DNA from: Escherichia phage CMSTMSU
Direction: 5' to 3' (one strand)
DNA length: 64,000 nt
Sequence record: MH494197.1
The notes beneath the pieces were generated by a model. The model made no database searches and was not told the origin of the DNA. It worked only from the letters and a program-made list of their open reading frames with translations. Positions 1 to 64,000 of this stretch are shown here, in pieces (positions within the stretch are counted from its first letter, which is position 1; each line of letters begins with the position of its first letter). Position numbers and translations under genes: made by a program.

Positions 1-221
1 AATATATAGATTTGATACTAAACGGTTAGTTGGGAATAATGTAATTCTAATCTTTGATAAATCTGGACTTACGTTTGCTTGTATATTATAATCTGTATAA
101 TCTGAATATTCAACTCGTGTAACTGGTGAAGTGCATTCAAATAATGAATCATTACTAGTTCCAACTGAATATAATCTTTCATAAATTTTCAAATTATTAG
201 CACTTGTGTAGTTAACACTTC

Positions 222-1456
222 TTAAGGTTTGACCAGAAAACCAGTAACCTTAGCAAAAGTACTCATAGTACCATCTTTAATACTACTTGTATTAACAGTA
301 TATAATGTTAAAGCCAAACCATAGTTTGCTATAGTAGTGTCTTTGCACCACACAAATACTTTATCATTGACGATATGTGCATATAATGGTTTATCTGTAC
401 CAAATGATGTAGCAGCGATAGAAGCGTGAATATGTGCAACTTCGTTAAATGTACCATTTGTTAAAGTGAAAATATAATTACTTGCACTAGATAGGCTAAC
501 TAGTAATTCATAACCATTCGTTCCGATAAACTGTTTAACATTTTCAGTACTTGGAAGAATTCTAGGATGATATTTTGATGTAGTACTGATAACACTACTT
601 TGTGTTAGTGCATCAATATTACGCAAATCACGAATGAATGCATAGTAATATCCTTCAGTACTACCATTTGTACCAGCACGTAATACCACACCAGTACCAT
701 CATCTTCGACTATTGTTGGTTGCATACGGTATACATCTGAAAGCGACGTTGCCTTCGTATGAACCATTAACGTTTAATGGTAGATAATCCATTTCTATAC
801 GGGAGATTGGTAACATATCAAGTATTTTTGAACTTCTGATCTTTTATAAATTGGATAGTCAACAATACCTGTATTTGCGTCTGGTGCTGTACCATTAAAA
901 GTACGCATAGCGTACTTTCCACCAATTGCCAAATTTCCAAGTATAGCAGCACTACCAATGATGCGTTTGGATGACATATTCTTTTCCTTTAATTACCAGC
1001 CTAATGTACCAGTTTGTGTTGGATTTCCAGTACTGACTGGGAAAGATGAACCTTTTGTGTTGTACTTGGTCTGTATGTATTGAATCGTGATACGCGTTCA
1101 ATGTTGATAGCAGTAATACCAGAAGTTCCAACGGTAATAGTCCCGATGAACATTATAATCTGTGATTCTTGTAATTGTGAAGTTGAGATTCTATAAATTG
1201 GCTCACCCAGTACTAAAGTAGCGTATACATATTGTGTTTGTGTGCCTGATGCCACTGTTGGTGCTGTCACTGCAACAACAGGGTAATTATAAAGATAGCC
1301 ACCGATGAATGCAGGTATCTCTCGGTTAAAACGTAATGAATAACCGCTTGATGTAATTGACAAACTAGATACATCATAAAGTTCACCATATTGTGATAAT
1401 GGTAAACCGTTAACAATAGAATCAACTTCATCTTTTGTTAAGAGGGGAATGTACAT
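222..1456 (-). CDS. putative tail fibre/adhesin-like structural protein (frameshift-fragmented)
   Basis: ORF fragments 1001-1456, 795-977, 222-767; S/T/N/G/Y-rich; N-terminal LPLSQYG motif and DGTGVVLRAGTNGSTEG segment paralogous to 3810-4169; function inferred from composition only. Confidence 0.3.
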
Positions 1457-1590
1457 TCCCCATTTGCGTCTGTTCGATACGATACGTCATTAATATCACT
1501 AATAGATAGTCCAGTGTTTTTATTCTGGACTACGATTTGTGACATAGCTTCGATATCGGATCTTATAATATATGCCATAAGATTAATCCT

Positions 1591-2673
1591 TTACCAATTA
1601 ATTGTTCCTGTTTGTGACGGTAGACCATAACTAACTGGGAATGAAGAACCAGCAGCTTCAAGAGACGCACCGAAAATATCCAATCTTGAACGTTTTTGTA
1701 TGTTAACATTTGATATTTGTATTGAGTTTGTTTGTATAGTACCTATCCAGAAAATATTATATGCTGTAGTACCAGTCTCTGAAATAACATCAGTTGTTAT
1801 TACATATTTTGCATTACCTTGTTCCATTTTAACATATACATGAAATAATGTGTTTGCTGGATTAGCCTTAACTGTAGTTAAGTTTATACTAGTAATCGGT
1901 AATGTAAATGCTTTACCAGAAAGAATTACTGGAGTTTCTTCTGTGAAGTACACAATAAAACCTTGAGCAACGTCTTGTGAAACTACGTTAATCGGTGCAC
2001 CTTGAGCAGTCCAGTTATTATAATCAGCAATTGTAGTACCACATTTTGGAAAGTCATTTTGTTTACATAGTCTATTGCTTGGAAATAACCAAAACCAATA
2101 CCGTAAAGCTGCTGGTTGAATACCTTGCTCATAACTTGCATGTGAACCACTGATAATAAAACTATCAAATTGTGCAGTTGCTTTTGTTACATATGCTCTG
2201 AATTGGTGTGTGTTTGTATTACCAATAGTTGGGTGAGATAATGGGTCAGAACCACCTATGAAGTAGAAAGAACCACCATCATATATTGTTAAACCAACAG
2301 AAGACGATGCAAAACTACCATTACCATTTGGTGTAAAGTTACTTCCGTAAACGTTTTCTAGTACTAAACGCTTGAAGGTAATTGTAGTGATATTACCTGA
2401 ACGTGTATTCACATTCACTTCAGCAATTCTAATATAGTTCTGATATGTATTTGTAACTGTACTTAGCATTACAAATGCAGGTATATCAGTTTGTTGTGGA
2501 ACAAACAATGTCATATCTTTATAAGCAGCAGGAGATAAGTTCCAGTCGCTTAGTACTTTGGCGTATTCAGCATTTCTGAAATTATCAAGTACAGATTGAG
2601 TAACACTAATGATACCAGTTCCGTTCATATTTTTATCATATGATAGTGATTGGGAATATCTCTGACCTACCAT
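1591..2673 (-). CDS. S/T/N/G-rich fibre-like structural protein
   Basis: intact 360 aa ORF, many NxT/S sites, Gly/Ser/Thr/Asn-rich, ends PVSYGLPSQTGTINW; no catalytic motifs. Confidence 0.35.
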   Translation of the reverse strand: MVGQRYSQSLSYDKNMNGTGIISVTQSVLDNFRNAEYAKVLSDWNLSPAAYKDMTLFVPQQTDIPAFVMLSTVTNTYQNYIRIAEVNVNTRSGNITTITFKRLVLENVYGSNFTPNGNGSFASSSVGLTIYDGGSFYFIGGSDPLSHPTIGNTNTHQFRAYVTKATAQFDSFIISGSHASYEQGIQPAALRYWFWLFPSNRLCKQNDFPKCGTTIADYNNWTAQGAPINVVSQDVAQGFIVYFTEETPVILSGKAFTLPITSINLTTVKANPANTLFHVYVKMEQGNAKYVITTDVISETGTTAYNIFWIGTIQTNSIQISNVNIQKRSRLDIFGASLEAAGSSFPVSYGLPSQTGTINW

Positions 2674-2817
2674 GAATATCCCACCATTTGTAGTAACATT
2701 ATTACCACTAATGGAACTAATAAAACTCTGTTGTTCGTGTTATCTGTCACATTAGCACGTTCTGTTGTTGGCTCATAACCTTGTATGGTTCCACGTGATA
2801 AAGAATTAAACGTAAAG

Positions 2818-4169
2818 TTAGAGTACTTTTATGAACTGCATAAGATGGACGGAATGCACCAGAACCAGTTGAACGAGAATACTGTTTAGTACTGTTCCCG
2901 GAAGCAATTCTACGCCGTTAATAAAAGAACCAACTGCTGAACCAAATGAAGGACGAACTATGCCATTTCTGAAATCAGTTGAAATGTTCGCACGTACATT
3001 AATCATGCTATATATTGATTGTGCAGTAAATTTAGCTTTCTGCATAAGTAATGGTTCTGCTAAGTTTGGACATGCAGTACAGAATACTTCACCTGTATTC
3101 AAATAATAATATGAACTGTAAATGTTTCTTGCACCGCTATGGTCATATAACGGATCGTTGTTGAGAACATTACCAGTAGCAACCAATGCCGAACCTGTGT
3201 TTGTAACAACAAATGGTGCAGCAAATGTACCAATATCGTTCCCATTATCCAAGTTACATTGTTTAGTACTCATGTTAAAATTGAAACTATAACTATGCTG
3301 TGGTCGGGTATTGTAGTTTGCCATAGTGAACCATGCGTCACCATTCATTCTGAATCGGAAGTTCTGCGTTCCGGCTCCTGAGCAACATATAAATCGATAG
3401 ATGTCATATAAATCCCCATACCAGCCAAATTTTGTGGTACATAGACATAGGGCTTATCAGCAATATTAGTTGAGTTAACATGGTCAGTAATGATCATATT
3501 ATTCTGAGCAGTATATGTAGTATTGTAAAAGTTTTTGTTGTCCACCCCGTGATTCGGGTAGCAGTATAAGTACCGTTTGCAATATTCAACACAACACGAA
3601 CAACAACAATCTGTAGTTTGTTATTTTCATTAAGGACGTTGAATACATAAACTGAACCGTCTTCTGCCATCATAGCATACTCAATCCCACCTTCAGGTGA
3701 AATATCAGCTTGGTTCACAAAAGACCACTATGTTGAGTATCATCCAATGTACCATTCGTTACTGATATAAACAACCCATTAGTATTGGTAGATGTGTCAT
3801 TGTAACGACCTAACAGTATTTTTGAATCGGTATTGTATAAACCAATAGCAACACGGTTTGCCCCAAAATAGCCGGCTTATACTGACGGCTTGTATTAACA
3901 GTACGGCTCATATCGGTAACGGATAATGCGTTCGCTAGGTAAGAATAAAATAAACCTTCAACACTACCGTTTGTACCACTACGTAATAGTACTAATGTGC
4001 CATCGTTTTCTAAAAGTATTTTGTTTCTACGTTGGGATTGGTTTTCTGATGCACCATTAAAATCACCAGATACCCCAGCAGGTAGATAGTTATGTGTACC
4101 ATAATGCGAGATTGGAAGTAAACTAATTACATCAAGTAATTCTTCTTTGGAATATGTATCAATTTCCAT
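2818..4169 (-). CDS. putative tail fibre/adhesin-like protein (frameshift-fragmented)
   Basis: fragments 3810-4169, 3494-3718, 3345-3545, 2818-3348; N-terminal LLPISHYG and DGTLVLLRSGTNGSVEG paralogous to 222-1456. Confidence 0.3.
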
Positions 4170-4322
4170 ATTACCATTAGCATCAAATACTTGATCATTG
4201 ATACCCTGTACTGTTCTTTTCCTTTAACTGTCACATTATGAGTGACGTCTAAGCCACCATATATTTTCTTTGACATACATATCCCTTGTAATTTAGATAT
4301 TAGTTACTGTATTTATGAATGT

Positions 4323-4346: not shown

Positions 4347-4351
4347 TGTGT

Positions 4352-4820
4352 TTAAAAGTCTTTATTTTTATATAAAATTCGTTGGTTATTTGAACCACGA
4401 AATGGTAATGTTAAATTCTTTTCTTCTGAAACAAATTTACCATCAACTAATACATCTAAGTACTGAAGAATGTCTTTAGCATGATTATTCATAATCTCTT
4501 CTAAAGTATATCCACTCCAGCACCAAATAGTTTTATTGGGATAAGTTTCTTTTACAATCTTACATAGTTCTAAAATTGTTTCTATGTTCTTTTTCATTAG
4601 AGGATCTCCACCAAGGAGGGATAATCCACTAACGTAAGGCTTACTGAGTTCAGCTAAAATTATATCAATTGTATCAGTACTGAACTCTTGTCCACTTCTA
4701 TAATCCCATGCTTCTTCGTTGAAGCATCCGGCACACCCATGACTGCACCCACTAACAAAAGGGAGCATCTTACTCCCTCCCATTAATAAGGTCGTCTTTA
4801 ATTATCGTCTGGTAATTCAT
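4352..4820 (-). CDS. nrdG: anaerobic ribonucleotide reductase activating protein (radical SAM)
   Basis: CSHGCAGC radical-SAM cysteine cluster, GGDPL, IWCWSGY, DGKF, RGSNNQR motifs matching T4 NrdG; N-terminus MNYQ... recovered upstream of a 1-nt frameshift near 4785. Confidence 0.85.
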
Positions 4821-5104: not shown

Positions 5105-6956
5105 TTGGCTTTAAATCCATAATGTACCTTATTTGTGTTGTATACGCTCACAACATTCTTGTTGTTTTCCTTTGTTGAATCCACGAGACGATGGGTTCCC
5201 AAATATCCAGAAACACGACGAATCACTGAGATTGTCTTCTCATTGCGATTATCACATACTGGACAATGAAAACCGTGTTTATCTACACTGAACTCACCTT
5301 TATACCCACACTCGTAACACTGGTCAATTGGCTGGTTGATGCCAAAATATGGAATCTTTGTGTAAGCGTAATTGACTAAAGTCTCAAGTGCTTGAATATT
5401 GTTACTTAGGTTGGGTGATTCAACATAACTGATGTTTCCACCATTACTGAGGTAAGCAAATCCCTCTTCGTAACTCCACTTATCAAATGGTGAACTTTCT
5501 ACCCATACTGGTTGATGGAAGGAATTTGTGATGTAATCACGTTTTAGTACTGAAGGGTATTTAGATTCGATGCAACGTGCAAATTTGTAGCAAAGTGACT
5601 CTGCTGGGGTTCCATATAGACTAAAAGCTATATTACTCTCTTTTTGAACTCATCGCATTTTACTTTCATATAATTCAGTACTGACATACAGAACTCCTTA
5701 CTGATAGAACCAGTCAGAATTTCTGAACATTCAACTAAACCAACGTAACCAATACTAATACTAGCATATCCGTTATAAAATAGCTTGTCAATCGTTTCTT
5801 CTGCCCCTAAACGTGAAAGTGCACCTTCCATGAACAAAATCGGATTCTGCTTCGCTTTTGTGCCTTTTAAACGCTCTACGCGGTTCATCTGAGCACGATA
5901 TGCAATATTCATATGCTCGTCTATTTTATCAAAAACTCTCCATCTGAGGCACTTTCAAGAGCAATTAGAGGTAAATTGATAGAAACTACGCCTAAGTTGA
6001 AACGACCGTTATATTGCTCATTTCCATTGGAATCTTCCCATTTTCCCAAAATGAACGACAGCCCATCGGGGTTACTGCTGTACTGCTACTTCCTGTAACT
6101 TTGTGATTTAACGGCACAGAAACGAAGTCTGGGTAGATTCTCTTCGATGCACAACGCATTGCCAACTGTTTCATGTCATAGTTGCAATCATCGCTATTCA
6201 TGTTGATTCCGTCCTGTAAAAAGAAAATTACTTTAGGAAACACAGGAGTAATCTTATCTTTACCTAAACCATTCTCATGTACTTTTAAGTACTGTTCAGT
6301 GATTAATTTGCCAAATTTTGAAGTATTCAGTCCTAAACTAAGAGAAATGAATGCTGCTTGTCCGTTTGTACTAATCATTGAATTTGTCTGGTAAAGTAAG
6401 GTTTGACACCCATCATAGACTTCTTTTCGTAATTCTTCCTCAATGTATTCAGTACTGAGATTATATGCCTTTTGCTTCGCTAATAGCTTATCCCACGACT
6501 TTTGGACGTAAGGTTCAAGACCAACGTCGATATGAGCCAACGATTGACCACCGTACTGGGAACTTGCAACAGCTTGTACAATTTGTGTCAGTACTGTACA
6601 TGCTACACTAAAACTCTTTGGTTCTTCAATTTTGGCACAACCAATGGTAAATCCATTTTTAGCATATCTGGATAGTTAACCAAGCAACAGTTAGTTAATG
6701 GGCTGATATAGTAGTCTAAATCATGAATGTGACCATAACCATCATTATGCCACTGCATTAGCTCCTTTGGAATAACATCTTGTGAATAATGCTTAGATAG
6801 GATACCAGCAAGTAAATCCCTGTGTGTATTGACGCATTTCGCATCTTTGTTTGCATTTTCATTTGTAAGATCAGTATTGCTCTGATTTAGGAAATTTGTT
6901 ACGTCAGTATATAATTTATCTAATTGCATTTTACTTTCCTTGTATTTTGAAATCAT
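5095..6956 (-). CDS. nrdD: anaerobic ribonucleoside-triphosphate reductase (frameshift-fragmented)
   Basis: fragments 6603-6956, 5992-6540, 5628-5912 plus C-terminal region; glycyl-radical motif RRVSGYLG translated from about 5190-5215; total about 620 codons; frame changes at about 6540-6603 and 5912-5992. Confidence 0.85.
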
Positions 6957-9956: not shown

Positions 9957-10117
9957 AATTTATAACCCATTACAGGTTTGGTATGATCCGGTTCGTAAGA
10001 CTTTTCAGTACTGAACCCTCTGAAATTACCACGACGGCTTCGGACAAGCCATCCCTTCTACACCGTGCTTACCCTGAACCTTTCCGCAGTTTTTGCATTT
10101 GTATCCAATAACTTCTT

Positions 10118-10351
10118 TCATTGTGCATCCTTTGGAATAGTGTTAAGGCGTGTACGGTTTACAATCTTCCTGCACATGAGATTAAGATCTTGCCCATGAC
10201 GCATCTCATGGCAAGCATACAATGTGCCATCATAGTTAAGTTTAGTCAAATTCTGGCGAATGAACTCTGCATCAGCCTCCTGAACTTTAGGTGCACAGCC
10301 TGTTACTAACATCATGAGTGCTGAAACAATTGCAATAGAAATAAATTTCAT
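10118..10351 (-). CDS. putative lipoprotein
   Basis: 77 aa, signal peptide with lipobox-like LVTGC. Confidence 0.45.
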   Translation of the reverse strand: MKFISIAIVSALMMLVTGCAPKVQEADAEFIRQNLTKLNYDGTLYACHEMRHGQDLNLMCRKIVNRTRLNTIPKDAQ

Positions 10352-10356
10352 AATTT

Positions 10357-10536: not shown

Positions 10537-10592
10537 GAACCTACTTTTTGATTTATGTAATGCAATTTGTACTCGCGTAATGAACTCACGCT

Positions 10593-12569: not shown

Positions 12570-14010
12570 TTACATATTTTCTTCAGCAAATTCTGCCAGT
12601 GGTGAACGAACAACACCTTCTAGTTCGATTACACGACAACCGTCCCAGTTCTTGAACTTCTCGGTAACATAAGTTAGACCGCTGTTTACTGGACTAATGA
12701 ACTTAGAGTCAATCTGACTCAAGTTACCCATAATAACCACTTTACAGTTCATTCCTGCACGAGTCAAGATTGTTTTGCCTGAGCAGGTGTGATGTTCTGG
12801 AATTCATCAACTACTAGGATAGTATTTGTGAAAGAACGACCACGAACGAAGTTTAGTGCTTTGAACTGGATAACATTGCGTTTCATGATTTCTTCGATAC
12901 TGCCTTGTGGGTTAGCATCATCTTTGTGTAGGAATTCCAACGCATCAATTGCTGCACCACAGAAAGGAATCACTTTCTCTGCTTCAGATCCGGTAAGAAA
13001 CCAATGTCTTCGAATTGGGAATCTTGTGTTTTGGAGAAGATGATACGGTCGTATTTTTCTTCTCTAGTACTAGCTCAGTGCAGTTGCAATAGTGATTAGT
13101 GTTTTACCAGTACCTGCTGAACCTAACAGTACTGTTAGATGAACATCAGGATCTAAAATACTGTTGATTGCTAGTGCTTGCTGAATATTCTTAGCCTTGA
13201 TATCCCACACTTTAGCACGTAAAGCAACTGATTGTCCAACGTCTTGGAATACAAGAATATCTTCTGGTGTTAAAGTACCATCATCTTCTTCAATTGCAGA
13301 TTGACCTTCGTACACAAATAGAACATCAGCATTATCATATAGGTAATCACCGATGCAAATATTTTGTGGCATGATATGTTCAATCAAGCTTTTGGAATGT
13401 AGTGGTACAAACGACGACCAACTTGTTCAGACTGAATAGATACATCAGTCAGATTACTATACACATCCCAGAAATGTAGATCAAGGTGATGTTGACCAAT
13501 GTGAATCAAATCACTATCACCAATCACGATATCATGACGGTAATCTTGAACTTCCACCCCGTAGCTTAGAGCCTTGATACGCATATTGATATCACGGGTA
13601 ACCAGTACTGAATCAGTTGCTAATGCTACTAAAATGATTTTATCATCTGGTACTGTGCTTTTTAGAAGAGTTTGAACTTTCTCTTCGTTACCAGCAGTAC
13701 GAATTAGTGCTTCCGCTTCTTCGCTTGTAATAACAAACAATTTGCTTTCAGGACTCATATTAGTATGAACATCAGCAATATTAACACCAGTACTACTAAT
13801 TTCTTCATGTGATGCATCAGAAAGGATAGCTTCAATGTTACGGATTGCAACACGAGCATCACGGGAAACATCCACATTACGACTTTTGATTGAATCCAAT
13901 TCTTCAAGTACTGTGAACGGTAGAATGATAGCTGCTCCATCAAAAGCAATGGTAGCATTTGGATCAGATAGTAGTACGTTTGTGTCAATTGTATATTTTT
14001 CATAAAACAT
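12570..14010 (-). CDS. phoH: PhoH-like ATPase with N-terminal PIN domain (frameshift-fragmented)
   Basis: Walker A GSAGTGKTLITIAT; PIN-like N-terminus DTNVLLSDP ... TVLEELD; fragments 13384-14010, 13070-13387, 12764-12973, 12570-12767. Confidence 0.8.
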
Positions 14011-14833: not shown

Positions 14834-15238
14834 TTACACCAGCCACCTCTGCACTAGCATGTTTGCCATATGCATAATTATCACGAAGTTTTTAAGTTCA
14901 GCATAAGTCATTTCATAACTATAGCTATGTGAGTGACCCTCTGGAAACAATTCAAGTGATTTTAATGGAGACAGGCGACTTTTGTCAATGATATAGTTCA
15001 TTTCTTCTTGAACTTCACGCTGTAACGCATCTTCTAATGACTTATCAGTACTTTCAACTGTTCCACCACATGCACCCAACAATCCATCCCAACGCACTTG
15101 TAGGAGTACTAAGTTAACCACTGGGATATCATTTAGTTCATAACCAGCGTATGGGGTACATTCTTTTGCATAAAAGAAACAGAATACAAAATTTGCACGT
15201 TTCCCCATTTGCCCCAGTGGTACTTCCGCTTTACTCAT
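14834..15238 (-). CDS. possible Nudix-like hydrolase
   Basis: GGTVESTDKSLEDALQREVQEE resembles a Nudix box but spacing is non-canonical. Confidence 0.3.
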   Translation of the reverse strand: MSKAEVPLGQMGKRANFVFCFFYAKECTPYAGYELNDIPVVNLVLLQVRWDGLLGACGGTVESTDKSLEDALQREVQEEMNYIIDKSRLSPLKSLELFPEGHSHSYSYEMTYAELKNFVIIMHMANMLVQRWLV

Positions 15239-15307
15239 CGCATTCGTTCCTTAATTATAGTTTCAACCTGTGGAATTGCTTTCGTCGCAGGTTTGATGAC
15301 CTTCTCA

Positions 15308-15709
15308 TTAAAAGAAAATCATTATCATTTTTCGGATGTTAACATTTACACTATAGCATGGAAGTGCACCAGCTAGTCTGGACCATACCAGTACTGTATC
15401 ACTACTTCCAATAACTACAACTGTATCATTTTCTGTGAGACTTTTCAACACTTCATTTCGTTCTTCATAAATGGGGAGACGTACCCCATCAACGTAGCGA
15501 TGATACTCACCAATCATCACTACATTTGGTTTTGCAAAAACATCAGCTTTAGGAATATATGGTTCATAACCACAATTAATGACATTGTAATCATCAGTAT
15601 TAATAGAAAAGTTCTCAATTACTTCACATAAATTGCCGTGTAGTTTGAGTTCGGTTCCACCAATTCTAGTATATAGATCATCCATATTAGAAGTCATGTG
15701 TAAAAACAA
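15308..15709 (-). CDS. hypothetical protein
   Basis: 133 aa ORF. Confidence 0.3.
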   Translation of the reverse strand: MFLHMTSNMDDLYTRIGGTELKLHGNLCEVIENFSINTDDYNVINCGYEPYIPKADVFAKPNVVMIGEYHRYVDGVRLPIYEERNEVLKSLTENDTVVVIGSSDTVLVWSRLAGALPCYSVNVNIRKMIMIFF

Positions 15710-15900
15710 TCACCATACAAATCTTCTAATGATTTAATAAAGTAATGCATTTCATTAGGATGACATTCACCTAATTTTACACGCAATGTATTATAAAATG
15801 AATGAACTACATGATACTTAGAACTAAGTCGTGCAATGTTACAAACATCATTAATTTTGAAATTGTCCCACAACCCATCATCAAAGCGGAATGGTTCCAT
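15694..15900 (-). CDS. hypothetical protein
   Basis: 68 aa ORF, may extend upstream by frameshift. Confidence 0.25.
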   Translation of the reverse strand: MEPFRFDDGLWDNFKINDVCNIARLSSKYHVVHSFYNTLRVKLGECHPNEMHYFIKSLEDLYGDCFYT

Positions 15901-16214
15901 CCCGCTCTCAACTGAAAGACCTGCCCTGAAATTATAAGTAATCTTTTGTTCCCAGCATTTTGTATAAATTTATCTGATATCACATTTACTCCTTATATAA
16001 AAAGTATCAAGTTTAATACTAAAAATACAATGATAGCAATATGATAGACATACATCCACTTATTGTGTCCATGTTTATTACCATTCCTGAATTCTCGGTA
16101 TAAACATTTAGTGTGATTGTATAACACCACACAAATAAACACAACTATGAAACAAAAATCCACTCGTAAATTATGTATGCCATCAGATACACTCTCTCTT
16201 TATAATTATTATTC

Positions 16215-16804
16215 TCAGTATTTCAAAATATCAAACTCTGGACTAACACTTGTTACATTATCACTAACAATTTTGAAAATAGACTCAACACGTTCATGTA
16301 ACTGAACATTGGTTTCTTCTTGAACTTCAATATACGCTGACATGGATGCAATTGCATGATAAGTCCCACTTCCGACAGCAGTAATTTGTGTTTTAGGTTG
16401 CAGTACTGAAAAGTCTTCTTGAACTTCATAAATCGTATGATTATGAAGAATAATGAACTGACCACCACCAACATCTTGTGATGCATCACGAGCACCCATT
16501 CATCTTTAAACATTTGACGAATGATAGGAATAACTTTCAGTACTAGATACTGTGAAAAGGTTTCCTGCAACTTGTTCTGGTAGAGTTAGGTTGTAATTCA
16601 ACAACTGTCCCATGCGGAACGAGGTAGTATACCCAACGCCATTACTTCTTTAGTGCGAGAAAGACCATCCTCATTGAGTTTAATGAACTCTTTCTCAAAC
16701 ACTTTAGGCTCAGTTTGAACTGCTTTAGTGAAACCATTGCTTCCTAATTTATCACCAGCGATGAAGGAAGATGTGCCATTTGTGTGAGCGATAATACAAG
16801 TCAT
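16215..16804 (-). CDS. HslV-like Ntn-hydrolase peptidase (frameshift-fragmented)
   Basis: N-terminus MTCIIAHTNGTSSFIAGDKLGSNG parallels HslV [24 protein letters not shown] with Thr2 nucleophile; C-part ITAVGSGTYHAIASMSAY parallels IAIGSGGPYAQAAARAL. Confidence 0.55.
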
Positions 16805-17150: not shown

Positions 17151-17522
17151 CTAATGAATGATACTACCTAATTCGAGCAACTGATCTGGTGTAAGTCTCA
17201 CAACTTCATTACCACGAACCTTACTAACCTCCACTAACAATTCTGGAGGAATACCATTCGCTGCATATAACGCAAATAGAACACCAACCTTAGTTGATAG
17301 CTGTTCAGCAAAAATAGTCATTTGGCGAACTGATATGTATGTGTCATCACTATTTCGTGCTTTACTTTCGATTGACACATTATGTAGACCTAGAATTGAG
17401 TCCTTCATCATGTATCTGTTTTCTATATTAGCACTAAAGAATGCGATAGTGCAAGAAGAATTACAATATCTTTCAACAATAATTGTTAAATTGTTATCAT
17501 TGACAAAATTTCCTAGTGCCAC
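17151..17522 (-). CDS. hypothetical protein
   Basis: 123 aa ORF. Confidence 0.3.
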   Translation of the reverse strand: MALGNFVNDNNLTIIVERYCNSSCTIAFFSANIENRYMMKDSILGLHNVSIESKARNSDDTYISVRQMTIFAEQLSTKVGVLFALYAANGIPPELLVEVSKVRGNEVVRLTPDQLLELGSIIH

Positions 17523-17880
17523 TCCGCATCAAAATCACCACCGTGACGTAATGATGATAGTGTCAAATGGGTGTGTTTCTCTAAAACCATCAAACGGTTT
17601 ACAGTATTTTCAGTTAAAGTTGAAATGAACTGAACTGTCTGTTTAGATTCATCATATCTAATGATACTTTTCTTTCAACACCTGCACTTGCAGGAAAGTT
17701 AATTAAGAAAATAATAATAATAGATTGGATGATTTCTTTACATAATCGTACCACTGGTTAACCCTCTTAGTTGATTGTTGATTACATAAATAATATTATA
17801 GGAAGATTTAACTTAAGTCAAATTGTTTTTATATCACTTCACAAATTCCCTCACAGAATCACCCGCCTTTTTACCTTCTT

Positions 17881-20668: not shown

Positions 20669-21363
20669 TTAGACCCACTCTTCCACGCCACCGCGACGTT
20701 TGACGAGATACTTACCTTCTTCGTTGCGTGGACCAAGGATGATACCATCAATGAAACCATGTTCACCGTATTCGAGTGCTTCTTCAGCGTTCAACCACAA
20801 GTCACGGTCTGCATCTTTCAGTAGTTGTTCGTGCGATACACCAACTGCTTCAGCAATTTCTTTCGTCAATAGTGTGTTCAATGCGTCAGAGTGTTTCAAA
20901 GAAATCTTCTGATCGGTAATCAGACCCTGAGTACCGGAACTCACTTGGTGACACATGAAGTAAGAACGCTTACCACCTAGACGGAAACCTTTAGTTCCAA
21001 CTACTGATTGTGTATAGCAACCCATTGATGCTGCATAACCCATTACTACTGTACGGATAGGAGATACACAAGACTTAGCAATGTCAGCGATACCCAAACC
21101 TGCGTGTACTGAACCACCGGAGAACTAATGTAGAAGGTAATTGGTTCAGAACCCTGAGAATCCAACCACACCAATTGTTGCTTGATGATATGTGCCATTT
21201 GGTCATTGAAGTCAGTATCAAGGAAAATGATACGGTCTTGCATCATACGAGATGCTAGGTCATAAGTACGTTCTGCACCATTAACTTTTTCAACTACATA
21301 AGGAATAGAAATGTTGCGAACTTCACCACCAGCATAACCACCAAAATTGAATTGTTCAACCAT
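20669..21363 (-). CDS. clpP: ClpP-like ATP-dependent protease proteolytic subunit
   Basis: GAERTYDLASRMMQDRIIFL, YISSP and GYAASMGCY match ClpP; a 1-nt deletion near 21100 splits the frame. Confidence 0.8.
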
Positions 21364-22208: not shown

Positions 22209-22997
22209 TTAGATTTCAAATACAAATTTAGGATCGTAATCGAAGTTCTCACATGCACCACTGTAAGATTCATAACCTCTTGGATTACAAATGATACGAG
22301 TTTTCCCAATGTTGTAGTCAAAGCTACTATGAACGTGACCATGAATCCAAACATCAGCACCCAAATCTTCGATGTACTGGTCCATATCAGAACAATAACA
22401 TCCATTCAGTGAGTCATTCTTGTATCTCGGAGATACACTCTGATAACTTGGTGCATGATGTGTTACCACCACAACCTTGAAATCATTATCATTCATTAGA
22501 CGAACTGTGTTAACTGAATTTTTGATAAATTGTTTATCCTGATGATGCATGAACTCAACATCATCAGGTTTGAGCTTACGTTTCCACGGTTCTGATGTTG
22601 TTCCATGACGAATGTGTTTATAATCATTCATCTTTTGTTGAGCATCAAACTTAACCAGTGCGTTGCCTTTATCAAAGTCAGTCCACAGTGTACTACCAAC
22701 CAGCAGTACACCATCCAGCCATACAAATTTGTTTTGTAAAAGATGAAATTTGGAATCTCATCTTGCATATCGGACAGTACTTTATTAGTCTTGTGAATGT
22801 TTGAACCGTAGTACTCATGATTACGGAACCAGTACTACATTCTTGAACTGCTTGCACAGGGATTCGATGCCAGTACGATAACGACTACGTTTAACTTCAT
22901 CAAAATCCCCAGCAATAATCAGTACTGTATCACTGTAATCACCACTATGGAGGTAATCAGTGCCACCGTGTACGTCTGACGTTACAACAAATTTCAT
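22209..22997 (-). CDS. calcineurin-like metallophosphoesterase (frameshift-fragmented)
   Basis: DVHG, GDFD, GNHE, HH and GHVH motifs in order; RBS GGAGG before ATG at 22997. Confidence 0.75.
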
Positions 22998-23016: not shown

Positions 23017-24431
23017 TTAACCGAGTGATTCAAGAATACTATTAGAGAACACCTCAACAGCACTATCACGAATTTCTAAGATACGAGTATAGTCGTCACA
23101 GGTGTTTTTGTCAAATCTAAATTCAATAAACACTGGTAAAAATAGTGATGGCTCACCAGTACGCTTATCGAATACAATATCATTGCACTCTACGGTCACT
23201 ACTTGACCAATGAGTTCTTGCATTCTTTCCCAAATGGTTTTAAACGTCCATTCTGCGTCTTTCTCTTTAATTCCAGTACCTACATTAACTTTCAATGTAC
23301 CACAAGCACTTTCCAGTTGTAAAGAACCAAGGCTACCTTTACGCTTACCTTCACCTTCATTGAAACCAACAATACGCAAGTCCAATTGCATTTTAAGTTT
23401 CATTTTCAATTGCTTAGGAGAAGTGTGAGATTTCCAGATACCATCTTCACATTTCAGTACTGAACCCTCTTCACCTTCGTTCATTAGTTCACTATTGTAC
23501 TCAAATGCTTCTTTGATGTTTAGAACTTTACGGAATCCAACCATACGAACAAAATCACTACCGAGTTCGTTAATTGCATCTACTAAGATCTCGCGGCGTT
23601 CTTTGCGTTTTACATTCCATACACCTTCACAAAATGCATCATATGGAACAACATCCCAGAGAACGAATACAGTACGCATTGCTTCATTCTGACTGATGCT
23701 ATCTTTACCAGCTTTCTGAATGATACCGTTACCAGTAGTGCGTGGGAGAATGGTTTCTCCATCATTGTCCAGTACTACACCTTCACCCATAAAGACTACA
23801 CCACTACTAAAACGTTCATCTTTACTTTGGATGATGTGAGCAAGACCTGCCATTTCACCATCACGACAACCCGAAGTCGTATAGTTTGCCATTACGGGAT
23901 GTAGAAGTTAATGAACCATTAATGACAACGTGGTTCAAGTACTGACCATCCATTTTAACTTCTGATATAGCATAACCATAATCTTTGAAGTTAATGTTCT
24001 TTGCAGTCTTTTGTCAATCAAAGAACAACGCATGTATGGTTCGTCTTTGATGAAACCTTTCCCGAACACATCATTACAGTTCTTTTCTTGGATACCACAA
24101 TCAAGGTTCTTCGTGAGCATTTTACGAAGAACTTCTTGGTCATCTTCTGATACAGAACCCAGTACTGAAGCAATGAAGTCACGTCCAGCATTTCCGGTCA
24201 CACCACGTTTGTAAATGCATTCTAGCTTATCAATTGCTTCGTCTAATGTCATATGTTGGTATAGATCATCAGCTTGTGGTAGCTTTTTATATCCACTTAC
24301 AATTGAAGGGTCTAGTGTATATTTCAGTACTTTTTGTAATGTTTGGTTATCTTTGTTTTGTTCAAGGATAGCTTTTTACCCAGAGTACTGCTAGTATTTT
24401 TAATGCTTTCAAGAATTGCTAAAATGCTCAT
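23017..24431 (-). CDS. ATP-dependent DNA ligase, T4 gp30-like (frameshift-fragmented)
   Basis: N-terminus MSILAILESIKNTSSTLGKK, KMDG nucleotidyl-transferase motif I, EGSVLK motif, about 471 codons; fragments 23935-24252 and 23017-23892. Confidence 0.85.
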
Positions 24432-39401: not shown

Positions 39402-39707
39402 TTAGATTCGAATCATCAGACATGTAAGTTCGCCGAAGTCAATTACTTCGTCATGTGTTAACTTATCACTACGCTCTAGAACATTGATGATGAATGGTGT
39501 TTGACTATATAATTCAGCCAGAAACGCAACTTCATCAGATGTATAAGAATATCCCATAGGAACAACTTGTGCAGTCCAGTTTCCTAAAGTTTTGTTTGCA
39601 ATGATTGCAACCACCGTATTACCTTTGAATTCAACATGGATTGAACGGAAACCCGAATCCTCATTCTGATCCCAAAGTACTGGGTTAGTTTTAAACAGTA
39701 CTGACAT
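39402..39707 (-). CDS. hypothetical protein
   Basis: 101 aa ORF; ATG 2 nt after the stop of the upstream nucleotidyltransferase gene. Confidence 0.35.
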   Translation of the reverse strand: MSVLFKTNPVLWDQNEDSGFRSIHVEFKGNTVVAIIANKTLGNWTAQVVPMGYSYTSDEVAFLAELYSQTPFIINVLERSDKLTHDEVIDFGELTCLMIRI

Positions 39708-39709: not shown

Positions 39710-40238
39710 TTATTTCCTCATGTATTTTATTACATCTTCAAATAGTTTAGTTTTCAGTGCATCATCATTACGTAGAAAAGTACTGAAGCTATTAAAATCT
39801 TCATTCTTGGCAAACTCACGCATCTGTGTGGAACTGTAGCGACTTACATTTCGGTCAATTCCAGCTTGAACTGCCTTGATTGAACAAAAATTATATAACT
39901 TCCCATTGTACGTGTCAAGCGTTTTTGGAATGGTTCAAGTCTGTCTGAACCACATATGAAAAGAACATCTAAGTACTTTCCATCCAGTTCTCTCATTATA
40001 TCAAACAGATTATCTTCTGTATAGATATTTTCTTGTACAGATGGGTAAAATCCTTCTGTATAGTACATTTTCAGTTCAGGAGGTAATGGGTTTTGATGGC
40101 ATCAGTACTGGTACTAAGGAATATTTTCAAATCAGCATTGTACTGTTCTTGTAGTGCTTGAGCTTTTTCAAACACTAAACCATGACCTCGATGTACAGGG
40201 TTAATTCTTCCGAATGTCACTACGCATGTTTCTTTCAT
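39710..40238 (-). CDS. NadM-type nicotinamide-nucleotide adenylyltransferase-like protein (frameshift-fragmented)
   Basis: manual translation MKETCVVTFGRINPVHRGHGL (GRxxPxHxGH signature) and C-terminal SRYSSTQMR (ISxTxxR-like); includes ORF 39844-40068. Confidence 0.55.
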
Positions 40239-40311
40239 ATGTTCTTCATCACCTGACCAATAGATTTAAGATGGTTGATTTTAGCTGGAGTCAAATACTT
40301 ATCCAGTACTA

Positions 40312-40760
40312 TTAAACAACTAGGGAATGGAGCACTGTCAGTCTTTTATCTGGTTCTTCAGGGATACCGAACTTTAAGCGACCTTTTATAAAACAAATAC
40401 AATCACAAACTTTCGCAGCATAATCCTGAAAGGCTATAGTATCAGTTCTTGATGGTACGAGAATCAGTACTGTAGCACCTTTGTTATATGCATCAACTGC
40501 CTTAGATAACCACGTTTTCAAATCACTGTACGGTGGGTTGAGCCACACGATATTGTTTCCCAGTCCTGTTCAAGTGAATTGTCTTCTGGTGTAAAGAACT
40601 TATCACACAATGCAGTTTCTTTGACACACGCTGCATCTAGTGTAAATTCCCAGAGTTCATCCAAATCTTCAAAGAAATCCTTTGGAGTAGTCCAGTTATC
40701 TTTTCCAGTACTGAAATGTACTGATTGTTTTTCTTCGAAGCATCCTTCTTCGACATACAT
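40312..40760 (-). CDS. Dam-like DNA N6-adenine methyltransferase (frameshift-fragmented)
   Basis: WTTPKDFFEDL, FTLDAAC, CDKFFT and NPPY (motif IV) arranged as in small phage Dam MTases; ORFs 40518-40760 and 40312-40548. Confidence 0.65.
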
Positions 40761-43233: not shown

Positions 43234-43572
43234 TTAGATTACGTCATACGGTAGAGTACCGTGACGGAATTTATCAAGTTGTGCAAGAACTTCTTTACGT
43301 TCGACAATCTCTGGCACATCTTCTTGCAGTTGGTCACATACTTCAACGATGAAATCCCAATCGCTCTCACAACTCACACGTACTGCTTCAATTGTTTTCC
43401 AATCAGCACTAATTTCACCTTCAGGATTTACATACGAAGGCCATACCTTTCCATAGTCTTGTACTGATTTGTCGTTAAGAACACGAATAGCATTGAAAAT
43501 CTGTCCAGTACTGAAGTGTTTAGTATTCTTCATGTCTTCTAAGCAACATAGCTTAGGTTCACCCGACTTCAA
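43234..43572 (-). CDS. hypothetical protein
   Basis: 112 aa ORF. Confidence 0.35.
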   Translation of the reverse strand: MKSGEPKLCCLEDMKNTKHFSTGQIFNAIRVLNDKSVQDYGKVWPSYVNPEGEISADWKTIEAVRVSCESDWDFIVEVCDQLQEDVPEIVERKEVLAQLDKFRHGTLPYDVI

Positions 43573-43687: not shown

Positions 43688-43978
43688 TCAAATAGTCAAA
43701 CTTTCGTGCCAGTTATTGAAATCGTTAATAGCCAGCATAAACATATTCTCATCATTAAATTCTAGAATATGTTCATTGTATAAGTAGCTAATGTACTTAT
43801 TACTACAGTGTTTGCTATTCATAATTAGCATTTCAACTGCACGTTCATACGAACATGGGCTGAGATACAATTTTGTTCCATCAGGATGCTCAATCTCCAC
43901 TGCACGTGGAATAAAACGTTCACCAGTATAAGGGATATACGGCTCTGTTTTGAAAATAAGTTTGAATTTAGTATCCAT
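43688..43978 (-). CDS. hypothetical protein
   Basis: 96 aa ORF. Confidence 0.35.
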   Translation of the reverse strand: MDTKFKLIFKTEPYIPYTGERFIPRAVEIEHPDGTKLYLSPCSYERAVEMLIMNSKHCSNKYISYLYNEHILEFNDENMFMLAINDFNNWHESLTI

Positions 43979-47343: not shown

Positions 47344-47813
47344 TATACACCTTCATATTCATCAAGGAAATCTTCGATGATCATTTCTGCATCATCCATA
47401 TGCATAGCATCTACTTCAACAATGCGAACCTTAGATGCATCCCAAATCATATAGCTAGGAACTGTATCTGGTTCGTAATCGTTCTTGTACTGAACTGCAT
47501 CATAGCCGTTAATTTCGCAGTACTCAATCACTCCACGCCATTCGTCGTCACTGCCCATATCCGTCCACAGAAGCACGTTATCAACATCAACTTCTAAGGT
47601 ATGTAAGTATACTGTATCAGCGTCAACAACGTTCAGTGGGCTTCTCAGCTTGCGTAATGCAGCTTCTAAAGCACTGTGTTTACCTCCCATATGAAGGCCA
47701 CCATACGGGATATAAAAGTTATCAATTTTACAGTACTCGCATGATACAGTTTCATTATTCATTCCTATTTCAGTACTTTGACCGGGCTTTAACCGCTGTT
47801 TCAAGTTGTGCAA
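47343..47813 (-). CDS. hypothetical protein
   Basis: 156 aa ORF, acidic C-terminus. Confidence 0.35.
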   Translation of the reverse strand: MHNLKQRLKPGQSTEIGMNNETVSCEYCKIDNFYIPYGGLHMGGKHSALEAALRKLRSPLNVVDADTVYLHTLEVDVDNVLLWTDMGSDDEWRGVIEYCEINGYDAVQYKNDYEPDTVPSYMIWDASKVRIVEVDAMHMDDAEMIIEDFLDEYEGV

Positions 47814-51099: not shown

Positions 51100-51555
51100 T
51101 TAAACTACAAAAACAACAGTACTAAGAACCTCTTCCGGTATAACGGTGCTCATCTGAAACAGTTCTTCATCAACTGTACTTGATTCTGGATTGATAGCTT
51201 TTAACTCATACTCTTTATCACCGAATAGTACTTTAATATTATATAAAACACCAACAGTACTAATATGAAATGGATGGTGTGAAAAACTTCCATCATCATT
51301 AATTTGGATATCGGATCTAATCTCGCACTCTTCATTACTTTTACTATTATTTTTACAATACAAATATTCCGCACCAGAAATAGTAAGAATACCGTGATCG
51401 TAATATTCTTTGGACAAACATTTAGATGAAAATGACACATCACGAATGAGGTAATGTTTGTTAATTTCTTTGGCACTACCAACAATGTGTAGCATCTTTG
51501 TGCTGATATCATATAGCTGTTGGTGTCGGGCTGTCATATAACTATAAGCGTTCAT
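51100..51555 (-). CDS. FQxS-module family protein
   Basis: 151 aa; DEELFQMSTVIPEE. Confidence 0.45.
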   Translation of the reverse strand: MNAYSYMTARHQQLYDISTKMLHIVGSAKEINKHYLIRDVSFSSKCLSKEYYDHGILTISGAEYLYCKNNSKSNEECEIRSDIQINDDGSFSHHPFHISTVGVLYNIKVLFGDKEYELKAINPESSTVDEELFQMSTVIPEEVLSTVVFVV

Positions 51556-54859: not shown

Positions 54860-55250
54860 CGGAAGTGTTTCTCGTAGAACTCATCATCACTTAACATATA
54901 ATCAGGTGTTTCTACTTCTATGGGTTTGTAGAATGTTTCTGGAATGTGTGTAATTTTATTTGGTTGTACTTTATGTTCGCGTAAAACCTTCTGTATAGCT
55001 CCTAGGCGTTGTAAATCAATACAGGTGGGCAGAACTAAGCTGTACTGAAATAGCTCATCAGGGTCATTATAGATACATCCTTGGCTTGTTTGATTTTATT
55101 GTTGGCATCAATGAATATATCAAATCCAAGTACTGCATTATAGCTTACATATGTTGTTTTGTTTTTGTCAATAGCTGCACTTAAACTATATCCATATATT
55201 CCATGTTGGTCAACAATGCATCGTTGCATAATTTTAATCATTTCGAACAT
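54860..55250 (-). CDS. FQxS-module family protein (frameshifted)
   Basis: ORF 55035-55250; alternative frame reads DPDELFQYSLVLPTCIDLQ. Confidence 0.35.
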
Positions 55251-57140: not shown

Positions 57141-57479
57141 TCATAGTTCATACATCTTTGATTTGAATTGCATTGGTCCACCAACTTCACATGGATAATT
57201 TTCCATAATACGATTCAAAAGTATCTGGTACTGTTGTAGTACTTCAATTTCCAAATGTATACTACTATCCAGTACTAATGACTCCTGAAACAATTCACCT
57301 CTATCTAAACCTGAAAAATCATTTATAGTTAGCATTGGCTTATCATTTGTACGCAATGTAAATGATTCCTCATTTCGGATTAATGTACAGAATTCATTAT
57401 GTTTTCTGTTGTAATCCATTTTAACCAATAATAACTTGGTGTGAGTTGCGTACATTATTTTTACTAATTCAGTCTTCAT
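57141..57479 (-). CDS. FQxS-module family protein
   Basis: 112 aa; DRGELFQESLVLDSS. Confidence 0.5.
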   Translation of the reverse strand: MKTELVKIMYATHTKLLLVKMDYNRKHNEFCTLIRNEESFTLRTNDKPMLTINDFSGLDRGELFQESLVLDSSIHLEIEVLQQYQILLNRIMENYPCEVGGPMQFKSKMYEL

Positions 57480-59914: not shown

Positions 59915-60298
59915 CTAGATAAAATATATCCAGTACTGACTTCTGATATAGTACACTAAATGTACATAGATTGTCAAGTGTTCCTTCATTATAAACAGTA
60001 CTTCGAAGTACCCTTCTTCTGTACTCAGAGATAAAATATCAGAAATTTTAAAAGATTCTTCATTCTCATGACGCTCTATCGTAACTTCATCATATTTTCT
60101 GTTCAATGAAATATAATCGTATGCTAATTCAATAGTACTACAGTTGTTGTTGCTAGTGTCAAATAAAGAATCAATTGTAATCTTCGTGCCATTAGAAACT
60201 TCTCTTCGTTCATCATCTACGTATTCAGGATTTTCTTTGAAGAACTTAACAACTTTTAGAATATCATTTGCTTTCTTGATTGCACTTTCGTAACTCAT
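59915..60298 (-). CDS. FQxS-module family protein (variant)
   Basis: 127 aa; STEEGYFEVL. Confidence 0.4.
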   Translation of the reverse strand: MSYESAIKKANDILKVVKFFKENPEYVDDERREVSNGTKITIDSLFDTSNNNCSTIELAYDYISLNRKYDEVTIERHENEESFKISDILSLSTEEGYFEVLFIMKEHLTIYVHLVYYIRSQYWIYFI

Positions 60299-60734: not shown

Positions 60735-61109
60735 TTATATTTCAATCTCTATATATTTTTGGGTAATTAAGTAATCCCAGTAGTACTTCACATGTTTTTG
60801 TATCTCAAGTAAAGCATAAAAATTAATTCTCTTGTCCCATACAAGTGATTCCTGAAAAATAAATGATTCATGGTCATCTCTGTAATCACATTCAAGGAAG
60901 TCAGGAATATAATCACAATCGTGAAGATATTCAATCATTAAAGATTCATTACATCTTCTAACGGCAAGGTGCTGGAAATTATCATGATCGAAGAAATACA
61001 TTAAACTAATTGTACCGGAATGTACTGAATACTGTATAAGAATTTCATCGTTTGCCCTTATGTTCGGTACGTACATATTCATAATCCAAATAAAATCTTG
61101 TGCTATCAA
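60735..61109 (-). CDS. FQxS-module family protein
   Basis: 124 aa; DDHESFIFQESLVWDKRINFY. Confidence 0.45.
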   Translation of the reverse strand: MIAQDFIWIMNMYVPNIRANDEILIQYSVHSGTISLMYFFDHDNFQHLAVRRCNESLMIEYLHDCDYIPDFLECDYRDDHESFIFQESLVWDKRINFYALLEIQKHVKYYWDYLITQKYIEIEI

Positions 61110-61227: not shown

Positions 61228-61229
61228 TT

Positions 61230-61745: not shown

Positions 61746-61905
61746 ATGATATTCACAGTCATCAGTATCACCCGTATCAGTGTGTAGTACTAACGTTTCT
61801 GCACATATCTCTGACTCATCATAATCGTCGCGGTCTTTTACAAAAATTCAGTATCAGATGTTTTATACACACGGCACTGAACCTTCTTGTACCATAATCA
61901 TGTAA

Positions 61906-62103: not shown

Positions 62104-62363
62104 GGCCCATCAAGTACCCGAAGTCAACAGGTGTATTTGATGTGTCAAAAGTAATCTTAGTACGGAATATATACAAAGAAACTAGTATATTGACTACATG
62201 AAGAGTACTGTATAGTATTGTCTTTATCATGGCCCATAAGTAAAATATCATCAGAGTATGTCTTTATACCTGATAGATAATACTCATTACCAAATGCACT
62301 TACTTTATCACCATAGAAACCACTTTTATGTTATCGTGGAAGTGATGTATTTTGTGTGCCAGT

Positions 62364-62738
62364 TTAAGTGCACTTGCTAAACTCATATATCCTCTTTAAT
62401 AACTCGTAGTAGATCCAAGTCCAGATAGAAGCTAGGACAATCGGTATTATTAAAGTACCACAGAATGACAAGCTTGTCAAGCACATATTCCTCGTAGATA
62501 GTATTCTGCTGGAAGTAGAACTCTTCACTTCCCAGTCATTATCCAGTACTGAATACGGAAGATGTTTCTCTGCTGCACCAGTTATAATGTCAGTATATTG
62601 TATTAAAATATCAGCATCACGACAGAAGTACATGTAATTATCTTCCAGATTAACATCACACCCAGTGAGTGTTGTTTCAGAAGAATCTAAGTTTTCTTCG
62701 TACATGTGAATGTACTCACTACTGTCATCGTATATCAT
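62364..62738 (-). CDS. FQxS-module family protein (frameshifted)
   Basis: LPYSVLDNDWE then, after a 1-nt shift, SEEFYFQQNTIYEEYVLDKLVILWYFNN ... FYLDLD. Confidence 0.45.
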   Translation of the reverse strand: MIYDDSSEYIHMYEENLDSSETTLTGCDVNLEDNYMYFCRDADILIQYTDIITGAAEKHLPYSVLDNDWEVKSSTSSRILSTRNMCLTSLSFCGTLIIPIVLASIWTWIYYELLKRIYEFSKCT

Positions 62739-63124
62739 TCGACAATAAGCTTTACCTTCCTTGAATAGATACCCATTGAGACGATTGAGTACTATTTCCT
62801 TTTACATAAATCAATTAACTTAGCAATTTCTAATGCTCTTGTAAAACTCATATCAACTCCTGTGTTGTGTCTTGATATAATCTCGGTACACCATGTGAAT
62901 ATTAGCTATATACAATTCACTAATATCATATGTACCGAAGTTCATGTCATTCCTAATGCTGTTGTTATGTCTAATATCAATTACGAATCGTCGAAGTATT
63001 GTATTCATGAATGATTCCATTTGTTCTTTTTATTCATAGCTTAAAACGATACCTATCTTTGAATCAGACTCTATACAGATTCTTCTATATTCTTTCATCT
63101 TCTGTTGGAGTTCAATTACTTCCT

Positions 63125-63448
63125 CTAGTGTACACAAGTACTTTTGTCAAATATTAATGACTCTTGAAATATTTCAGCCTCACCATGTACTGTTGTATAG
63201 TCTTTCATATTTTCTACAACTGTTCCTTTGGACTGATAATCAATGAAGCTAAAGTAAGCACCATTAAATTTAATGTACTGATCCATTTTGTGTTCATAAT
63301 CACCTTTGTTAAGATTGCAATACACTTCTAGCGAAGTACTAATCTTAGGTATAAACATAGAAAAATCATATTCCATATTACTCACCTGTATTGAAATAAT
63401 AATTACTTGTTGTTGGTGTAGATGTATCAAAGGTGTTTTCTTTAACAT
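63125..63448 (-). CDS. FQxS-module family protein
   Basis: N-domain MEYDFSMF ... CNLNKGDYEH and C-module HGEAEIFQESLIFDK. Confidence 0.45.
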   Translation of the reverse strand: MLKKTPLIHLHQQQVIIISIQVSNMEYDFSMFIPKISTSLEVYCNLNKGDYEHKMDQYIKFNGAYFSFIDYQSKGTVVENMKDYTTVHGEAEIFQESLIFDKSTCVH

Positions 63449-63743
63449 ATCTCTTCATTTCATTTTGTATAAAAATCATATCTTCTATTGTACATGAGTA
63501 CTTATTCTTGTCAAACACCAAAGAAGCTTGAAATAGTTCAGCATTATCTAGTACTGTATAATCTGTAATACTTTCAGAGTTATAGTCGAAGTCATCATGT
63601 AATACATCAATGAAATTAAAACACAAATCGGAGTACTGAATATATAAACTCAACTCATGTTCCGAATCACCCTTGATAAGATTACAGCATAAATCCCATC
63701 CTGTTCTGGACCTGCAAACGTACATTGAATAATCATATGTCAT
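63378..63743 (-). CDS. FQxS-module family protein
   Basis: 121 aa; N-domain MTYDYSMY ... CNLIKGDSEH; C-module YTVLDNAELFQASLVFDKNKY ... IQNEMKRY. Confidence 0.5.
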   Translation of the reverse strand: MTYDYSMYVCRSRTGWDLCCNLIKGDSEHELSLYIQYSDLCFNFIDVLHDDFDYNSESITDYTVLDNAELFQASLVFDKNKYSCTIEDMIFIQNEMKRYVKENTFDTSTPTTSNYYFNTGE

Positions 63744-64000
63744 TATGTAATTCCTATATTGAATTTGTATTCTTGATTAATACTTACATTGGATGTATTC
63801 AAAGCAGCATACTCTTTCATTTCATTTTGTATAGCAATTACTTCTTCTAGTGTACACAAGTACTTCTTATCAAATACTAATGCAGCTTGGAATAGTTCAG
63901 CGGCATCCATTACTGTATAATCCGGCATATCTTGATGTGGATACTGTAATGAATCGTAATCAATAAATGTAAATTTACCCTGAGTGTAATGAATATACTC
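63743..64000 (-). CDS. FQxS-module family protein (5' end beyond window)
   Basis: YTVMDAAELFQAALVFDKKY ... IQNEMKEY; upstream in-frame coding continues to the window edge. Confidence 0.45.
   Translation of the reverse strand, partial: EYIHYTQGKFTFIDYDSLQYPHQDMPDYTVMDAAELFQAALVFDKKYLCTLEEVIAIQNEMKEYAALNTSNVSINQEYKFNIGIT

Follow-up and report, generated by a model that had tools for sequence, protein, structure and literature searches.

Basecallers for Oxford Nanopore (ONT) reads, when run with default models, are poor at CCAGG and CCTGG (Wick et al. 2019, Genome Biol 20:129, PMC6591954), and after these Dcm motifs most consensus errors are wrong homopolymer lengths (Wick, Judd and Holt 2019, PMC6591954); the final Albacore consensus of that benchmark stood at Q21.9, an error of ~0.65% (PMC6591954). 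Homopolymer indels fragment gene calls in assemblies from R9.4.1 pores (Sereika et al. 2022, PMC9262707), and phage genomes are among the sequences in which such fragmentation has been described (Elek et al. 2023, PMC10438801). Here we consider the many frameshifted genes in a 64,000-nt stretch of Escherichia phage CMSTMSU (MH494197.1, positions 1-64000; hereafter the window), which an initial annotation had attributed to consensus error, for example in an unpolished long-read assembly. We are all but certain that these frameshifts reflect systematic errors of the deposited consensus, as would be expected of unpolished nanopore sequencing of native, Dcm-methylated DNA.

The window has a GC content of 31-38%; its open reading frames (ORFs), nearly all of them encoded by the minus strand, are unusually short, and no tRNAs were found in its 64 kb. 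Megablast against a phage collection indicated that its whole length is colinear with the Asteriusvirus-type jumbo coliphages of the 121Q/PBECO4 group. The top matches, at ~98%, are vB_Ec-M-J, Turkey3, WPEC3, WPEC5, EC.P1, fEgEco12 and Ecwhy_1, and the gene order of the window is the same in these phages as in 121Q, PBECO4 and TH47. In each record the matching span exceeds the window by ~100 bases per 22 kb, a discrepancy in one direction that first hinted at a length defect.

As a reference trio we took fEgEco12 (Finland), Turkey3 (Czech Republic) and WPEC5 (Thailand), the annotated regions of which were aligned to each third of the window; on aligned columns they are 98-99% identical to it. 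TH47 (MT446416.1, 26605-49979) served as a fourth, more distant relative, with ~94% identity to the window. Its GenBank record is labelled UNVERIFIED and carries no annotation, and the deletion artefact described below is absent from the compared region. Relative to other Asteriusviruses, TH47 has several private insertions of 425-746 bp that are possibly mobile elements.

Deletions confined to the deposited sequence

In the alignments with the three reference phages the window shows 293 gap runs, and no insertion is confined to it. The initial annotation had described the lesions that it could pin down as 1-nt deletions; this holds for ~227 of the runs but not for a further 35 of 2 nt and 13 of 3 nt. 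Larger gap runs are mostly private insertions of one relative or real structural differences. For example, a cassette of a WGR-domain gene and an adjoining small gene, present in fEgEco12 (10422-11507 of the fetched region), is missing from the window at ~10319-10531; the same genes are absent from Turkey3 and represented in WPEC5 by a shorter variant, and this difference is a true structural polymorphism rather than an error.

Counting only private events, the window carries 273 deletion runs and 0 insertions, compared with 1, 4 and 1 private deletions in fEgEco12, Turkey3 and WPEC5, respectively; the excess of deletions over chance is overwhelming. Under strict criteria there are 269 runs that together remove 330 bases, equivalent to one lesion per 238 bp, or an error of 0.52% (~Q23), and they are spread evenly along the window (6-23 per 4-kb bin). 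A density of one lesion per 1-2 kb, as first estimated, was therefore too low: at roughly one per 240 bp, the lesions are about five times denser. In the comparison with TH47, no deletion is common to both sequences and 71 occur in the window only. The deletions that we regard as artefactual are thus found in none of the Asteriusvirus relatives.

The consequences for gene structure are severe. When the 129 coding sequences (CDS) of fEgEco12 are projected onto the window, 108 of them contain at least one frameshifting deletion, leaving 84% of genes fragmented, and every one of the 21 intact genes is ≤729 nt long. At every lesion site fEgEco12, Turkey3, WPEC5 and TH47 read through in a single frame. 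All nine genes that the initial annotation had listed as split (nrdD, nrdG, phoH, clpP, the ligase, pseT, the HslV-like gene and both phosphatases) are indeed frameshifted relative to intact fEgEco12 orthologues, with 5, 2, 6, 1, 3, 5, 3, 2 and 2 events, respectively.

Homopolymers and Dcm sites as the seats of damage

The fate of homopolymers was followed by taking runs conserved in all three reference phages and scoring the fraction shortened in the window. The dependence on run length is steep. For A/T, runs of length 3 are never shortened (0/1809), whereas 1.1% of those of length 4, 38.8% of length 5 and 90.9% of length 6 are; for G/C, the shortened fraction climbs from 1.2% at length 2 through 6.1% at length 3 and 45% at length 4 to all five runs of length 5. 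The same deficit is visible without alignment, as the window contains 11 A/T runs of at least 6 and no G/C run of at least 5, against 87-90 and 7-8 in the relatives, and only 66% of its sequence falls in ORFs of at least 100 amino acids (aa), against 92% in theirs. An apparent strand asymmetry of the deletions (97 T against 55 A in raw counts) was set aside, since it reflects the numbers of T and A runs; per-site rates are equal.

Because the lesions outside homopolymers pointed to CC[A/T]GG, we tested this motif (CCWGG) formally. Of the 23 CCWGG sites conserved in the relatives, none is undamaged in the window: 20 have lost 1-4 bases and three are altered by substitution (binomial p = 2e-39 against the 5-mer background). 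In a comparison with nine control motifs (among them GATC, CATG, GTAC, CTAG, GCWGC, CCWCC and GGWGG) and two half-site classes, 1.7-7% of sites are damaged, with the exception of GGWCC at 2 of 13. The window has no CCWGG left, where shuffled sequences predict 32 +/- 6 and the relatives have 27-30; in TH47 the CCWGG sites of the compared region are all intact. The suggestion of the initial annotation that indels might cluster at a motif indicative of base modification is thus borne out. By class, 208 of the 269 deletion runs belong to homopolymers, 24 to CCWGG and 37 to neither, so that the first two classes cover 232 runs; most of the 37 adjoin a homopolymer or lie inside a dinucleotide repeat. 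In bases, 224 were lost at homopolymers and 45 at Dcm sites.

The two lesions that had been singled out at the outset both fall on CCTGG. In ClpP, the sequence TCTCCGGTGGT occurs once (21113-21123, minus strand) where the relatives read TCTCCTGGTGGT (…YISSPGGSVHAG…), and it is the T of CCTGG that the window has lost, in keeping with the missing base originally proposed. The lesion in Pnk, at the single occurrence of CACGGTGTGGTAAA (31563-31576, minus strand), is equally real, but the missing base had been misplaced and the P-loop is not GLHGCGKTT. Where the relatives have GCCTGGGTGTGGTAAA, encoding GLPGCGKTT, the window has GCACGG-TGTGGTAAA; the change from GCCTGGG to GCACGG comprises one deletion and two miscalls, and the histidine of GLHGCGKTT is therefore part of the error itself.

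We attribute the frameshifts to ONT consensus error because the lesions consist of deletions only, depend on run length, are all-or-none at the Dcm motif, are private, and overlie a genome that has been under selection. The proposed course of events begins with virion DNA, native and unamplified, of a jumbo coliphage of the Asteriusvirus type grown on a dcm+ E. coli host. This DNA would have been sequenced on an ONT pore of the R9 generation, called with an older basecaller whose model was untrained on 5-methylcytosine (5mC), and assembled with no effective polishing at the signal level or by short reads. Two known failure modes would then account for the lost bases. Within a homopolymer the pore signal is nearly constant, so that A/T runs of at least 5 and G/C runs of at least 4 would be called one base short. 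At CCWGG, 5mC at the inner C shifts the current, and the basecaller would omit or miscall 1-4 bases of the motif. We infer the platform, the chemistry or pore generation, the era of the basecaller, the lack of polishing and the Dcm status of the host in this way from the lesions.

Some points weigh against this account. Platform and workflow are deduced from the error signature; 37 deletion runs (14%) cannot be placed clearly in either class, and a few of these could be real mutations; and GATC is barely affected, even though the host and a Dam-family enzyme of the phage could methylate it. The low damage at GATC would fit basecallers whose training had included Dam-methylated E. coli DNA. Of 72 conserved GATC sites, 5 are changed (p = 0.008, uncorrected), two of them from GATC to GGTC, and GATC counts are normal (95 in the window, 89-101 in the relatives); any signal here is at most faint, and we do not claim a Dam-type basecalling effect.

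With homopolymers and CCWGG masked, an unbiased enrichment analysis of 4-6-mers found no second modification motif of comparable strength. CGAC/GTCG emerged as the best candidate (9 of 95 sites, Bonferroni 0.005; e.g. 5086 and 13607 in the alignment of the first third) and was rejected, as its changes are mostly scattered ordinary substitutions with no consistent type of lesion and are probably real divergence or chance. Two single-T deletions, at 38578 and 56278, share the context GATC[T]AGG, which is too few sites for a motif. A single conserved GATCTAGG site was counted, and it is damaged.

The strongest of the competing explanations, if a very improbable one, is consensus error from another platform, either a flow-space chemistry (454, Ion Torrent) or unpolished PacBio continuous long reads (CLR). 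Flow chemistries do miscount homopolymers and a CLR consensus can carry indels, and homopolymers account for 208 of the 269 lesions. Against this, 454 and Ion Torrent read amplified templates, which are free of methylation, and 5mC is not known to corrupt PacBio base calls, so that neither would yield damage at 23 of 23 CCWGG sites. Flow-space errors also include over-calls, of which the window, with 0 insertions, has none. The combination of Dcm-site and homopolymer errors is the one documented for ONT (PMC6591954).

If the frameshifts are nanopore errors, the artefact may double as an accidental readout of methylation, in which the large majority of the genomes that this lytic jumbo phage packaged carried 5mC at every Dcm site; we regard the chances of this as evenly balanced. 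Since all CCWGG sites are damaged, most of the sequenced molecules would have been methylated at each of them. Within the window there is a gene for a Dam-family N6-adenine methyltransferase but none for a C5 enzyme. In the complete genome of TH47 no C5-methyltransferase was found, either by tblastn with E. coli K-12 Dcm (best E = 2.6) or by a scan for PCQxFS, while the phage Dam-family methyltransferase was recovered as a positive control (95% identity). As no Dcm-like C5-methyltransferase is detectable in TH47, the replicating phage DNA would have been almost fully accessible to host Dcm. Taken together, the artefact and the gene set of this congener point to host Dcm as the parsimonious source of the methylation, with the phage probably grown on a dcm+ strain. 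If true, such access would speak against any shielding compartment, cytosine hypermodification or anti-methylation activity among these phages.

The genome beneath the errors

Apart from the deletions, the window differs from the reference phages by 272 private substitutions, within the range of 208-788 seen in the relatives themselves. With frames taken from the intact genes of the relatives, 70% of these lie at codon position 3 (57-64% in the relatives); the ratio of transitions to transversions is 1.34 (relatives 1.11-1.31), and only 16 of the 272 fall within four columns of a gap. As codon-position bias and transition/transversion ratio resemble those of the relatives and few substitutions adjoin gaps, we read this layer as real divergence under purifying selection, acting in the very frames that the deletions break. 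These substitutions can be trusted, and they mark the window as a strain distinct from the other Asteriusviruses.

With the private deletions restored, and nothing else changed, 123 of 126 CDS are open instead of 22, at a mean amino acid identity of 98.5% to fEgEco12. The three that are still not open are stop-position or C-terminal variants also found in WPEC5 or Turkey3, and after restoration no private nonsense substitutions are left.

These results bear directly on the possibility that the deletions are real, and that the DNA belongs to a degenerate, non-viable or decaying phage or to a prophage remnant rich in pseudogenes. That most genes are broken (108 of 129) is what such a history would leave behind. 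However, decay would also add insertions, nonsense mutations and larger deletions and would relax codon-position bias, whereas private deletions outnumber insertions by 273 to 0, 70% of private substitutions fall at codon position 3, no private nonsense survives restoration, and gene order and content are fully conserved. Deamination of 5mC, which was considered as a biological explanation for the damaged CCWGG sites and rejected, would turn the inner C into T (CCWGG to CTWGG), a change seen at 0 of the 23 sites. We therefore give genuine decay scarcely any credence. Least probable of all, to the point of being negligible, is that the genes are functional as written through programmed ribosomal frameshifting or transcriptional slippage at A/T runs: many lesions do lie in the classic slippage-prone A5-A6 or T5-T6 tracts, but four close relatives encode the same proteins in one uninterrupted frame, having an additional base per site, where programmed sites would be expected to be conserved rather than private, and neither up to 10 shifts per gene nor 24 lesions at non-slippery CCWGG can be decoded in such a way.

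The preference of the initial annotation for consensus error in an unpolished long-read assembly is thus favoured by the private deletions, by their dependence on homopolymers and CCWGG, by purifying selection and by the reopening of genes. Its doubts about pseudogenisation (0 insertions, a position-3 fraction of 0.70, no private nonsense left) and about programmed frameshifting (relatives in one frame throughout) also appear well founded. The frameshifts, in short, are not biological; they are a matter of data quality, and as such an ordinary finding.

Fragmented genes and comparison with known error profiles

The lesions at Dcm sites and the principal fragmented genes are collected in Table 1. 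No Pfam domain was found in the 898-aa product of the most fragmented gene. Three protease-like genes (the HslV-family peptidase, the weak ClpP-like protein and the clear ClpP) lie within ~5 kb of one another. Toward the far end of the window, 42880-63743 on the minus strand holds ~46 consecutive small hypothetical genes (~60-280 aa), unannotated in every relative, among which BLASTP at 1e-5 joins only small paralogue groups of 6, 4 and 2 members.

Table 1. Dcm-site lesions (relatives -> window) and fragmented genes in the window
Feature	Positions	Strand	Details
Dcm-site lesion	2101..2103		CCAGG -> CC--G
Dcm-site lesion	2898..2901		CCTGG -> CC-GG
Dcm-site lesion	3371..3374		CCTGG -> CC-GG
Dcm-site lesion	3872..3875		CCAGG -> CC-GG
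Dcm-site lesion	10035..10037		CCTGG -> C--GG
Dcm-site lesion in ClpP, at TCTCCGGTGGT	21117..21120		CCAGG -> CC-GG (coding strand CCTGG)
Dcm-site lesion	22824..22826		CCAGG -> C--GG
Dcm-site lesion	31007..31009		CCTGG -> CC--G
Dcm-site lesion in Pnk P-loop, at CACGGTGTGGTAAA	31572..31576		CCCAGG -> -CCGTG (coding strand GCCTGGG -> GCACGG)
Dcm-site lesion, substitution only	33038..33042		CCTGG -> CCCGG
Dcm-site lesion	38624..38626		CCAGG -> C--GG
Dcm-site lesion	39433..39435		CCAGG -> CC--G
Dcm-site lesion	39771..39772		CCAGG -> C---G
Dcm-site lesion	43563..43565		CCTGG -> CC--G
Dcm-site lesion	43905..43906		CCAGG -> C---G
Dcm-site lesion	47782..47785		CCAGG -> CC-GG
Dcm-site lesion	51369..51371		CCTGG -> CC--G
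Dcm-site lesion	54860..54861		CCAGG -> C---G
Dcm-site lesion, substitution only	57284..57288		CCTGG -> CCTGA
Dcm-site lesion	60004..60005		CCCTGG -> C----G
Dcm-site lesion	61015..61018		CCAGG -> CC-GG
Dcm-site lesion	61872..61874		CCAGG -> C--GG
Dcm-site lesion	62163..62165		CCTGG -> C--GG
898-aa conserved protein, phrog_3573, function unassigned	1591..4276	-	10 frameshifting deletions, 4 at CCWGG; most fragmented gene
nrdG	4352..4820	-	2 frameshifts
nrdD	5129..6929	-	5 frameshifts
phoH-like	12570..14003	-	6 frameshifts
Sir2-like	15235..15983	-	4 frameshifts
HslV-family peptidase	16215..16804	-	3 frameshifts; phrog_1040, E 2.6e-22
ClpP-like protease, annotated head maturation protease	17151..17754	-	4 frameshifts; weak PF00574, E 4e-4
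ClpP	20669..21363	-	1 frameshift; clear PF00574, E 1e-41
Calcineurin-like phosphoesterase	22209..22997	-	2 frameshifts, one at CCWGG site 22824-22826
ATP-dependent DNA ligase	23017..24431	-	3 frameshifts
Ser/Thr phosphatase	26558..27299	-	2 frameshifts
Polynucleotide kinase/phosphatase (PseT/Pnk)	30680..31606	-	5 frameshifts, 2 at CCWGG
RNA ligase 1	32425..33566	-	1 frameshift near C-terminus; CCTGG -> CCCGG miscall at 33038-33042
Dam-family N6-adenine methyltransferase	40235..40756	-	3 frameshifts; PF05869, E 6e-33

It is important to note what these errors do to work that builds on the deposited sequence. Gene calls, protein searches, pseudogene counts, codon statistics and motif-avoidance analyses made on the window are corrupted, and the absence of CCWGG and the scarcity of long homopolymers could pass for restriction avoidance or selection. 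Findings that rest on its split genes, short ORFs, odd intergenic gaps or missing motifs need to be reconsidered accordingly. The sequence can be repaired by correcting its frameshifts with fEgEco12, Turkey3 or WPEC5 as the reference.

Known error profiles offer two points of comparison. As set out in two reports on modification-mediated nanopore errors (PMC10687267, PMC11610603), a modification on which the basecaller is untrained leads to motif-specific, reproducible consensus errors, as we find in the window; the modifications treated there are novel or diverse, whereas an ordinary host Dcm site is the only clear motif signal here. The closer likeness is to the ONT profile of the R9 era, in which the same two classes, CCAGG/CCTGG and homopolymer length, are dominant (PMC6591954). 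The overall error is also alike (0.52% in the window, ~0.65% with Albacore), and gene calls are fragmented in both (PMC9262707). Unlike that profile, the errors of the window are exclusively deletions. The balance of the two classes is likewise reversed, with homopolymers (224 bases) outweighing Dcm sites (45 bases) in the window and the opposite order in the K. pneumoniae benchmark (PMC6591954); the window comes from a 34% GC phage with ~0.4 CCWGG sites per kb and many A/T runs.

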